Source: a virus
DNA: 6,098 bases
Reading direction: 5' to 3' (one strand)
UHGV virus genome: UHGV-0383223
Shown here: one piece after another, positions 2,709 through 6,098 of the stretch
Layout of the letters: each line of letters opens with the position of its first letter
Numbering within the stretch: position 1 is the stretch's first letter
Program-made: the position numbers and the translations under genes
The notes under the pieces: model-generated
Told to the model about the DNA's origin: nothing
Database searches by the model: none
What the model saw: the letters and a program-made list of their open reading frames with translations, nothing else

Positions 2709-2891
2709 ATGGATTCATTTACATCTTTTGTATCAATGTGTTATATGGCCTGTATGTTCCTGTATCTGACAGGTATGGTATTTGGCTTTTTTATAGGTCT
2801 GCTTTCCAGGTCCCTTTTTAGGGATATCACTTTATTAGTTTCTGAAGCCATTGGAAAGATAAAAAATCGGTCATTATCCAATGAGCTATAA
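2709..2891 (+). CDS. Small hydrophobic membrane protein (60 aa); possible pVII/pIX-like minor coat or assembly peptide
   Basis: AAGGGGGTGA lies 4 nt upstream of ATG 2709. There is an N-terminal TM segment (SFVSMCYMACMFLYLTGMVFGFFIGLL). The ORF track lists a longer TTG-started version from 2685. Its 3' end overlaps a convergent minus-strand gene. Confidence 0.4.
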   Translation: MDSFTSFVSMCYMACMFLYLTGMVFGFFIGLLSRSLFRDITLLVSEAIGKIKNRSLSNEL

Positions 2892-2949
2892 GACCAACGA
2901 GAAATAAACCTAAAAGGCTTAGTATGATTAGGAATATTTTTTGTTTCAT
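2827..2949 (-). CDS. Small hydrophobic peptide (40 aa, MKQKIFLIILSLLGLFLVGLIAHWIMTDFLSFQWLQKLIK), second gene of the minus-strand RHH operon
   Basis: On the minus strand AAGGAGA lies 5-6 nt upstream of ATG (plus coordinates 2947-2949). The peptide has a single TM helix. It is an internal start of the 82-aa ORF 2827..3075, which lacks comparable RBS support. It overlaps the 3' end of the + gene 2709-2891 by 65 nt. Confidence 0.45.
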   Translation of the reverse strand: MKQKIFLIILSLLGLFLVGLIAHWIMTDFLSFQWLQKLIK

Positions 2950-3004
2950 AGTATTCTCCTTCCAGCGGAGCAGCGTATACTGCTCCGTTTTATCATGAGT
3001 TTCT

Positions 3005-3211
3005 TTAACCAGTCCTTGAGATAGATGACTTTTCCAGCTTACCCTTCTGTTCTGCCCGGTTCTGTTGGGCTTCAAAATTTTTGATATAGTTTTCGATTAT
3101 TATACTTCCCATTTGGCTTATGCTTCTTTTGTCTTGTTCTGCTATATCCTTTAATTTTTGATAAATGTTTTCGTCTAATATAATTTGTACTTTGGGTTTT
3201 TTTGTTGGCAT
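3005..3211 (-). CDS. Ribbon-helix-helix (CopG/Arc/MetJ-like) DNA-binding regulator, 68 aa; candidate phage repressor
   Basis: The N-terminus KVQIILDENIYQKLKDIAEQDKRSISQMGSIIIENYIK fits a beta-strand then helix then helix RHH pattern. GAGGAG lies 5 nt upstream of the ATG on the minus strand. It is transcribed divergently from a + strand promoter that is wrapped in inverted repeats. Confidence 0.6.
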   Translation of the reverse strand: MPTKKPKVQIILDENIYQKLKDIAEQDKRSISQMGSIIIENYIKNFEAQQNRAEQKGKLEKSSISRTG

Positions 3212-3228
3212 AATTTCTCCTCAAAAAA

Positions 3229-3304
3229 GGGATTGACGGTTAATCCCCTCATGTGATATACTGAGGGTATTCCAGGGGAGTAACCTTTAATCCCCAAATG
3301 TCAA
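3229..3304 (+). promoter_or_regulatory. Sigma70-type promoter (-35 TTGACG 3233-3238, 18-nt spacer, extended -10 TGaTATACT 3254-3262) embedded in three inverted repeats; candidate operator region for the RHH regulator
   Basis: IR1 is GGGATT(3229-3234)/AATCCC(3242-3247) and brackets the -35. IR2 is CCCTCA(3246-3251)/TGAGGG(3262-3267) and brackets the -10. IR3 is GGGGA(3275-3279)/TCCCC(3291-3295). The direct repeat TTAATCCCC occurs at 3240-3248 and 3287-3295. Confidence 0.6.
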
Positions 3305-3427
3305 AGTGGTTGTTGTAGGTGCATTGGTAACCTTCCGAAAATCTGAGTCATTCCGAATAGGTGTAGGGGTACAACTATTTTACCATGATTTCAGATTTTT
3401 GTATATTACGATTTTGGAGGTGTGAAT

Positions 3428-3550
3428 ATGTGGGTAGTAGAAAACGTGAATGGCGATGGTTCTCTGGTAAAAAAAGAATTTGAGACATACCAGGAGGCAA
3501 AAGCTTACGCAGAGTGGACTTTGGGAACTGTTTGTTATGTGAAAATTTGA
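3428..3550 (+). CDS. Small hydrophilic hypothetical protein (40 aa, MWVVENVNGDGSLVKKEFETYQEAKAYAEWTLGTVCYVKI)
   Basis: GGAGG lies 7 nt upstream of ATG 3428. The ORF is below the size cutoff of the ORF track. It is the first ORF of the transcript from the 3233-3262 promoter. Support is RBS and position only. Confidence 0.35.
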   Translation: MWVVENVNGDGSLVKKEFETYQEAKAYAEWTLGTVCYVKI

Positions 3551-3589
3551 GATTTTAGTAATTAGTTGGATGGTTAAGGAGGTTAAGTC

Positions 3590-4134: not shown

Positions 4135-4166
4135 TGGGGGTGGCGGTTGCCACTCCCTTTTTTATT
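4135..4166 (+). terminator. Rho-independent terminator after the major coat gene
   Basis: The stem is GGGGGTGGC(4135-4143)/GCCACTCCC(4148-4156), 9 bp with one G:U pair. The loop is GGTT. It is followed by TTTTTTATTT (4157-4166). Its position mirrors the strong terminator after gene VIII in Ff phages. The ATPase RBS follows immediately, which suggests partial read-through. Confidence 0.75.
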
Positions 4167-5788: not shown

Positions 5789-6098
5789 TGGAATATATGC
5801 ATTTCCTTGTCCGCTCCCAGTGCCAGGTTTCTAATGCTCTCGAATCGTCATTGTCTGGATTATCTACGTTATGGAGGTTTATTATGCTGGTGGATTTTGA
5901 TAAGACAGAACTGCTTTACCTGGACATATTAGCAACGGAGAAACTGGATATCGTAAAGCACCGCTATGAACGCGATAAACGGATTTTTGATACTTTGGAC
6001 ATTGATGTTCATGAACGTATGGTCTTATATGAATCCCAGATAAAAGCGTTTACTGATATACATAACAAAATAGTTTTGGCAGTAGGTTCCTTGTGTTT
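5785..6098 (+). CDS. Hypothetical protein, 3'-partial in the window (alternative start ATG 5884 with GGAGGT 6 nt upstream). It would terminate at TAG 14-16 if the window ends are joined.
   Basis: The reading frame is open from the ATGA overlap at 5785 to the window end. There is a strong SD before the in-frame ATG 5884. The product is a helical, charged protein (DFDKTELLYLDILATEKLDIVKHRYERDKRIF...). I recognise no motif in it. Confidence 0.4.
   Translation, partial: MMEYMHFLVRSQCQVSNALESSLSGLSTLWRFIMLVDFDKTELLYLDILATEKLDIVKHRYERDKRIFDTLDIDVHERMVLYESQIKAFTDIHNKIVLAVGSLC
6080..6090. repeat. Right arm (CAGTAGGTTCC) of the 11-bp inverted repeat paired with 1-11
   Basis: See the 1-11 feature. 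Together with ORF closure across the junction, this suggests the window is a linearised circular genome. Confidence 0.6.

Follow-up and report, generated by a model that had tools for sequence, protein, structure and literature searches.

Why should the two ends of a phage genome be inverted copies of each other? The UHGV virus genome UHGV-0383223, a stretch of 6,098 nt that was analysed at its full length and is called the window here, begins with 11 nt that are the reverse complement of 11 nt close to its end. The original prediction took this repeat as the mark of a circular genome cut inside a hairpin, and suggested that the hairpin could be the core site of a tyrosine recombinase, a terminator or a packaging signal. 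Here, we show that the window is a complete, circular filamentous phage (inovirus) of Enterocloster from the gut, cut in the hairpin, and that the hairpin is not the site of integration. That role falls to the adjoining attachment site, attP, at positions 29 to 50, which copies one half of a dif-like site of the host chromosome and is probably acted on by a XerS-like recombinase of the host.

The circularity of the window came from a second assembly of the same genome. An exact-protein look-up with the Rep protein of the window located the contig L035 (GCA_019971255.1, JAHXEC010000017.1), which is 6225 bp long and whose first 127 bases are identical to its last 127, a direct terminal repeat. 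Its unit is exactly 6098 nt, has 6 mismatches to the window and carries the junction of 6098 to 1 internally, which establishes the window as circular and complete. A metagenome scan found three contigs (L001–L003) with the joined palindrome in their interior, whose alignment to the window is continuous over the junction. L013 and many further contigs also read through it, and a prophage in a chromosome (L004) shows the window permuted and without interruption. Nothing is missing between 6098 and 1, and the window represents a whole genome of the Enterocloster type of inovirus. The circle of 6098 nt that had been predicted is therefore real, and the flanking sequence that might have separated the two ends places them next to each other.

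Joining the ends gives the following features:

Positions 6080 to 6090, + strand: 5' arm of the hairpin, CAGTAGGTTCC, inside the codons ..A V G S.. of a 76-aa open reading frame (ORF).
Positions 6091 to 6098, + strand: loop of the hairpin, TTGTGTTT; the window is cut directly after it, and the L012/L013 type has TTGAGTTT instead.
Positions 1 to 11, + strand: 3' arm of the hairpin, GGAACCTACTG; it codes for ..E P T V, the C-terminal tail of the 76-aa product, which is not conserved.
Positions 5884 to 6098 (71 codons and 2 nt), continued at 1 to 16, + strand: 76-aa ORF, with its last 5 codons and stop in 1 to 16.

Direct reading confirmed that positions 1–11 are the exact reverse complement of 6080–6090, and folding of the joined junction gave the predicted stem of 11 bp and loop of 8 nt, at −22.9 kcal/mol as RNA and −11.2 kcal/mol as DNA (z = −5.4 in both cases). 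The Watson–Crick repeat stops there, with G at 6079 opposite T at 12, and in RNA two G·U pairs (6078–6079 with 12–13) lengthen the stem. In the circularised genome, this hairpin is the sole perfect stem of at least 9 bp with a loop of 3–20 nt. Since mononucleotide shuffles yield 0.08 stems of at least 11 bp per genome, the hairpin is unusual, yet the probability that such a stem arises by chance somewhere in the genome is about 8%. Translation over the junction from the ATG at 5884 reads TTG GAA CCT ACT GTT TAG and closes the ORF five codons on, at the predicted TAG at 14–16, and gene callers find the same product of 76 aa on related contigs (L034–L051). A second, weak stem is seen at 11–35, where GTTTAGTA (11–18) could pair with TACTAGAC (28–35) through one G·T pair among others; it would bring the stop-codon region of the 76-aa ORF together with the centre of the attachment site, and A18G of the L012 type changes its closing pair from A-T to G·T.

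The borders of the integrated phage lie outside the hairpin. In two of the three metagenome contigs the similarity ends at position 50 of the window, and bacterial genes follow. When genomes were scanned with the Zot-like protein of the window, the phage turned up as a prophage of Enterocloster aldenensis (L004), and a 75% relative was seen in Lacrimispora (L005). A perfect direct repeat of 22 bp encloses the E. aldenensis prophage; its copies are 6221 bp apart and equal positions 29–50 of the window:

Positions 29 to 50, + strand: attP core, ACTAGACTTTCGCGAATAGTTG, identical to the host attB, with the centre CTAGAC at 30–35 and the right arm TTTCGCGAATAGTT at 36–49.
Positions 16 to 29, + strand: degenerate left-arm position of attP, GTACTTACTGATTA, to be compared with AACTATTCGTTAAA of the host; by eye, only the innermost bases are similar.

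The same core bounds the prophages L005, L010 and L012, and marks the left end of L011, the one end of that prophage that was available. In the E. aldenensis prophage the hairpin is intact, lies wholly inside the element and ends 18 nt before the right-hand copy of the repeat. As the hairpin is internal and the bounding repeat is 29–50, the hairpin is not the crossover site, and we rejected it as the core of the attachment site. The 11-8-11 palindrome had been proposed as a tyrosine-recombinase or dif-like core, to be compared with known dif sites; the crossover falls in the repeat 18 nt downstream, and the stem does not resemble dif arms by eye. The broader idea of an integrative filamentous phage with a dif-like site fared better, and such an attachment site was found right beside the hairpin.

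The site before integration was reached through the host vanZ gene that adjoins attR. Three contigs (L027–L029) carry the empty attB, ...ccctgct AACTATTCGTTAAA CTAGAC TTTCGCGAATAGTT gtctgcg..., with flanks that equal the attL flank of the E. aldenensis prophage on one side and its attR flank on the other. The host site consists of 14-bp inverted arms, symmetrical at 12 of the 14 positions, around a 6-bp centre. After integration, attL is identical to the empty attB, and attR joins the degenerate phage arm to the centre and the right arm of the host. Both arms of the site are found again, within unrelated flanking sequence, in Enterocloster, Lacrimispora, Hungatella and other hosts, and the centre varies with the host (CTAGAC, GTGTTG, GAAGTG, GTAGAC, GTATTG or CTATTC). 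The centre of the resident phage matches that of its host, as in the L015/L016 lineage, where both are GAAGTG. Conserved arms around a variable centre that is matched by the element are the signature of a tyrosine-recombinase core site.

[quoted passage not shown] In 20-kb windows, the GC skew is positive on one side of the module and negative on the other, and genes converge there (L027, L053, L055); the inverted architecture, the varying flanks and the local switch in skew and gene orientation were seen in three host backgrounds. A canonical dif site of the XerC/XerD type was considered and rejected, as the site is by eye unlike the entries of Bacillales, its arms matching in the outer and not in the inner halves. 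It is also unlike, by eye, dif of E. coli and that of B. subtilis.

Different elements use the site as a hotspot, among them window-type arrays, a second Zot-like element and an inovirus of the Rep_trans type. The second Zot-like element (L025, 10349–18138, and L026) is unrelated, filamentous-phage-like and has a faint Zot-like gene. The element in Hungatella (L052/L054, 3329–9114) is likewise unrelated, encodes Rep_trans and Zot, and has the same attL/attR topology at the same site; a second dif-like palindrome is found about 100 nt inside it (L052, 3446–3480). In hosts of the E. aldenensis type, a lone inverted copy of the right arm, GTTTCGCGAATAGTTG, lies in an intergenic region about 380 bp from the dif-like site (L004, 5337–5358; also in L034 and L043), and may be what is left of an earlier element, or an accessory site for binding. 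Head-to-tail arrays of two or three prophage copies occupy one chromosomal site in L042/L043, L047, L048, L016 and L005, and the junction between the copies of an array has the sequence of attP.

Which recombinase could act on the site? A tyrosine recombinase of 350 aa (PF00589) is encoded beyond the repeats and also where the site is empty, and all host contexts examined have its gene on the side of the left arm. The gene is 52 bp from the site in L005 and 735 bp from it in L010 and L011; the distance is about 860 bp in L016 and 887 bp in L053 and L055–L057 (Hungatella and a further host), and grows to 3.2–3.4 kb in L027 and L004 and to 5.6 kb in L030; the gene is thus linked to its site, as is expected of a xer gene, at between 52 bp and 5.6 kb. 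Its best NCBIfam model is XerS (NF003462), and the closest solved structures are XerD, XerA and XerC-like. Homologues number in the thousands and are 80–90% identical across genera, and in Hungatella and a further host the gene stands among housekeeping genes (lexA, obg and the genes of L21 and L27). Taken together, its position outside the repeats, its presence at empty sites, its conservation and its housekeeping context mean that the gene behaves as a core gene and not as the integrase of a phage.

The IMG/VR records L010 (4–1053), L011 (4–1053) and L016 (7–1053) open with this host XerS-like gene, which is outside the att repeats, and their borders appear to run too far into the host chromosome. 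Repeats 'next to an integrase' were counted as canonical att sites by Roux et al. (2019), and this rule may explain why the three records begin with the host recombinase gene.

Among the ten longest ORFs of the window searched with Pfam and the nine scanned against PHROGs, none matched an integrase or recombinase family; small ORFs with no annotated function remain. A phage in which no integrase was found and whose attP is a copy of a host site looks like an integrative mobile element that exploits Xer (IMEX), here one that uses the Xer/dif system of its host. As judged from the sequences, attP mimics the host dif-like site, and the prophage is flanked by this site on one side and a modified version on the other, as IMEX are. 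attP carries the 6-bp centre and one 14-bp arm of the host site AACTATTCGTTAAA-CTAGAC-TTTCGCGAATAGTT, which shows the traits of a site for chromosome-dimer resolution (dif) with the linked XerS-like recombinase as its enzyme, and may be the true dif of the host. Integration would be a strand exchange inside the common centre, presumably catalysed by the host recombinase, and would restore an intact dif at attL and leave a half-degenerate site at attR. Tandem arrays are known from CTXphi, where they permit the production of virion DNA without excision. By analogy, the arrays seen here, which are frequent, could allow rolling-circle production from the chromosome.

The proposed mechanism resembles that of IMEX such as the VGJphi and TLCphi types of Vibrio cholerae, the gonococcal genetic island (GGI) of Neisseria and LME-1 of Legionella. 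These elements also lack an integrase of their own, have an attP made of one arm and the centre with the other arm degenerate, leave dif intact at one border and a modified site at the other, and occur several to a site and in tandem arrays (PMC5357621, PMC9765430). The features of the site match the criteria by which the dif of Legionella was recognised through LME-1 (PMC9765430). Unlike these systems, the host here is a Gram-positive member of the Lachnospiraceae, the site is of a 14-6-14 layout with near-identical arms, and apparently one adjacent XerS-like recombinase takes the place of XerC and XerD. An activation factor like XafT was not identified. The 76-aa ORF was considered as a known Xer activation factor and rejected, since it has no significant match in Pfam or PHROG; its sole Pfam row is PF21907 (E = 0.041, 14.6 bits against a cutoff of 26 bits).

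The system of streptococci and lactococci, XerS/difSL, is similar in having one recombinase of about 350 aa beside the site, a terminus-like position and XerS as the top model (PMC1914069, PMC2965235, PMC5357621), and the linkage of gene and site is as in XerS/difSL and XerH/difH (PMC1914069, PMC5357621). The arms carry motifs like TTCnnGAAA of difSL, a loose resemblance judged by eye from the sequences quoted in PMC5357621. The inoviruses of Enterocloster and Hungatella described by Burckhardt et al. (2023, PMC10061712) agree with the window in hosts, genome size and gene content. Their prophages were reported to be flanked by direct repeats and their virions to be secreted in vitro and in vivo; Xer, dif and recombinase occur 0 times in that paper, the matches to 'dif' lying within words like 'different'. 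The architecture of the attachment site, the empty site and the host recombinase come from the present analysis. Our literature search found no description of such a module in Lachnospiraceae and, among the searchable papers mentioning IMEX, none of an element that exploits a XerS-type system.

We would like to point out that several observations weigh against this assignment. The recombinase scores 212.4 bits with the XerS model, where the cutoff is 267, and other Xer models match it as well (XerC 178, XerA 167 and XerD 165 bits); we call it XerS-like, as it falls short of an equivalog of XerS by the NCBI criterion. difSL is a site of 31 bp with a centre of 11 bp and the arms TTTCCGAAAA and TTTTCTTGAAA (PMC5357621); the centre here is 6 bp, the arms are longer and more symmetrical, the site departs from the difSL definition, and in Enterocloster the gene can be 3.4–5.6 kb from the site. 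The link between recombinase and site comes from comparative evidence. The placement at the terminus depends on skew measured in 20-kb windows, and the position of the site at 49.8% of the 6.37-Mb E. aldenensis contig is meaningful only if that contig starts near the origin. Two further points concern the hairpin: a perfect 11-bp stem less than 20 nt from attP is unlikely by chance, and an accessory role is conceivable; and in L010 two substitutions retain G·U pairing, on the + strand only.

By its gene content the window belongs to the filamentous phages (Inoviridae sensu lato / Tubulavirales): the genome is small and circular, codes mostly on one strand, and has a rolling-circle Rep, a Zot/pI ATPase and a short, hydrophobic major coat protein. 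For Rep the matches are PF23343 (E = 1e-13) and phrog_3419 (E = 1e-22), for the coat protein phrog_2186 and phrog_6548, and for the Zot/pI-like ATPase phrog_197 and phrog_1675, with PF05707 (Zot) slightly under its cutoff. Further genes encode an Arc/RHH regulator, a pIII-like and a pVI-like protein, and the closest relatives in GenBank are gut records titled Inovirus sp. The genes closest to the attachment site on its right are:

Positions 50 to 56, + strand: ribosome-binding site of the pIII-like gene (GGAGGTG), read from the sequence, directly abutting the att core.
Positions 63 to 1463, + strand: pIII-like (receptor-binding) gene, the first gene of the integrated prophage; gene callers start its 466-aa product at the ATG at 63.

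Two stretches of the genome are mosaic: the N-terminal part of the pIII-like gene (340–841) does not align with the E. aldenensis prophage, which is elsewhere 90–95% identical, and the regulatory region (2807–3415) is exchanged among relatives, with an Arc/RHH repressor here and an HTH_3 protein in L042. A stretch of 153 nt (3403–3555), which covers a 42-aa ORF at 3422–3550, is 82% identical to a hypothetical gene of the Enterocloster phage PMBT24 (100 kb, OQ326496.2); the inovirus thus has a small gene in common with a large phage from the same genus of hosts. Directly 3' of the major coat protein gene, the window has a classical intrinsic terminator at 4136–4163, GGGGGTGGCGGTTGCCACTCCC followed by TTTTTT, and a scan called it at the equivalent position of L004 (9971–9992). 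In Ff phages, a terminator likewise stands directly after the major coat protein gene.

If attP is the site of integration, what is the hairpin beside it? Comparison of relatives shows that it decays with its surroundings. In the distinct versions of the region, none of the 11 pairs has a compensatory change, three pairs are broken and two become wobbles. In the 5' arm, A6081G and C6090T give wobbles and A6084T breaks a pair; in the 3' arm, A4C (L012 type) and G11T (L037) each break one. The window differs from L013 at 3 of the 22 positions of the stem arms (14%), at 30 of the 196 positions of the ORF upstream of the stem (5884–6079; 15%), and at none of the 22 positions of the att core (29–50). 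The stem drifts at the rate of its surroundings, and the att core is frozen. The hairpin is missing in the more distant relatives L005 and L015, an absence that the original prediction would have counted against circularity; the latter stands all the same because of L035. In L005 the ORF ends with ..KAVGDMSL*, and the tail coded by the 3' arm is absent. Beside attP, the fold has z = −4.9 in the window type, −0.6 in L013, and −1.9 in both L005 and L015, and a hairpin at this place does not appear to be a consistent feature across lineages. It is most likely a recent, lineage-specific palindrome that serves at most as a weak attenuator or a stabiliser of RNA 3' ends.

It is conceivable, though we hold it only tentatively, that the hairpin has no function, being a chance or recent palindrome (for example from a template switch in a quasi-palindrome) in a weakly constrained tail, and that its coincidence with the contig end is an accident or artefact of assembly. 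The 0.08 such stems per genome in shuffles are not vanishingly rare, none of the differences in the stem is compensated, and the tail ..LEPTV coded by the 3' arm is dispensed with in L005. The break inside the hairpin is specific to this assembly, as L035 is the same genome cut at another position. Against this stand two coincidences beyond the base chance of 8%, namely the distance of less than 20 nt to attP and the exact contig end. The hairpin is also perfect in more than 20 contigs of the window-type lineage, albeit all of these are nearly identical overall. The cut is at the exact border of the loop and the 3' arm, and 9 of 6098 possible cuts (0.15%) hit the loop or its two edges. One conjecture is that a bubble of a de Bruijn assembly graph at the loop, caused by a loop variant or by the loop flipping between its arms, would make a contig begin exactly at position 1, where the 3' arm starts.

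Rather doubtful is the suggestion that the hairpin acts as a weak intrinsic terminator, attenuator or mRNA 3'-end stabiliser that closes the late operon (coat, Zot, ORF269 and ORF76) before attP. It would reduce read-through into the pIII-like gene in the circular form, and across attR into the convergent host vanZ gene in the prophage. The RNA stem-loop is stable and stands at the very end of the last gene in a co-oriented block, with attP 18 nt and the ribosome-binding site of the pIII-like gene 39 nt further on. In the prophage it is the final structured element ahead of host DNA, and vanZ converges on it. In L010 the substitutions retain G·U pairing on the + strand only, and at this place L005 and L015 form borderline stems (z about −1.9) that are unrelated to it. 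A Rho-independent terminator has a G+C-rich stem-loop and a U-tract, and the tail here, TTTAGTAC (RNA UUUAGUAC), has T (U) at 4 of 8 positions and no such tract. The consensus scan skips the hairpin, though it calls the coat-gene terminator; an Rfam scan of a junction-carrying contig gave a single match, sR52 (E = 0.72), away from the hairpin. The lineage of L012, L013 and L014 has lost the stem (z = −0.6) without replacement, no compensatory changes are seen, and the divergence is at the neutral rate of the flanking ORF. Of the terminator-like hairpin that was predicted, the stable stem is borne out and the tail and the scan are not, which leaves it possible but weak.

It is improbable that the hairpin is an accessory of recombination, either as a cruciform or single-stranded stem that aids the host recombinase on an attP with one arm, or as part of a folded attP like that of CTXphi. 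The hairpin ends 4 nt ahead of the degenerate arm position (16–29), and the attP of CTXphi is folded single-stranded DNA (PMC5357621); CTXphi is also alike in being a filamentous phage at a dif site with a hairpin-forming region by attP. However, no second, inverted dif-like site as in CTXphi is present, and the double-stranded attP already holds a perfect arm and the centre. We folded 191 nt around the site as single-stranded DNA and obtained the junction hairpin alone, the att core being unpaired or weakly paired and rebuilding no dif-like duplex, and a folded attP of the CTXphi type was rejected. Besides the lack of likeness between the stem and dif arms, L012/L014 and L005 are integrated without the hairpin, at the same site and with the same attP core.

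Least probable by far is a packaging signal or replication origin (a Rep nick site or minus-strand origin) with the genome end as a real nick in the loop: origins of single-stranded DNA replicons and the Ff packaging signal are hairpins, and the contig ends at the edge of the loop, but the hairpin lies within coding sequence, is not conserved, is absent from relatives with the same rep gene, and was assembled straight through in L035. A far better candidate stands directly upstream of rep:

Positions 1742 to 1806, + strand: conserved imperfect hairpin (1742–1783) with an overlapping invariant block (1780–1806), upstream of rep.

This hairpin folds as RNA at −38.2 kcal/mol (z = −5.3), and six of its base pairs are retained through changes on both sides in L005 and L015. 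It served as a positive control for the conservation of pairing, in the same relatives as used for the junction stem. The 27-nt block CCATTACTTGACAGTATAAACACTTAA is invariant even in relatives that are 68–75% identical. Of the two hairpins, only that at 1742–1783 is non-coding and conserved in structure, as an inovirus packaging or origin hairpin should be, and the region 1742–1806 is likely the plus-strand origin or the packaging signal. The junction hairpin shares with the intergenic hairpins of Ff phages (M13/f1) that it is a stable hairpin on the + strand of an inovirus; unlike them, it is coding, not conserved and far from rep, and the element that resembles those of Ff is 1742–1783 together with 1780–1806. 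The packaging role once ascribed to the junction hairpin would thus pass to the conserved one.

The hairpin that drew attention to this locus is of little consequence, and the value lies in the adjoining attP, which marks out a candidate dif/Xer module in one of the major bacterial families of the human gut. On balance, we lean towards an undescribed dimer-resolution module in the Lachnospiraceae (Enterocloster, Lacrimispora, Hungatella and relatives), made of a 14-6-14 dif site and a linked XerS-like recombinase, with at least three unrelated lineages of Gram-positive inoviruses acting as IMEX whose centre is matched to that of the host. For Clostridia, the dif predictions in the literature are few and unreliable; the table of Kono et al. 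(2011) places them about 175 degrees off the skew shift point and gives none for Lachnospiraceae. If the proposal is true, prophage predictions that include the neighbouring 'integrase' would over-extend into a housekeeping gene of the host, a warning that applies to automated calls such as the three IMG/VR records above, and the 76-aa ORF with its hairpin, directly next to attP, could then be an accessory or insulating element. In practice, the site gives exact prophage borders, and its 34 bp may be of use for genetic tools in Enterocloster, as a target of integration. The site would offer a mechanistic basis for lysogeny in Enterocloster inoviruses, which have so far been reported only as flanked by direct repeats, and would extend the Xer-exploiting lifestyle to filamentous phages of Gram-positive bacteria and to a XerS-like system with a single recombinase.

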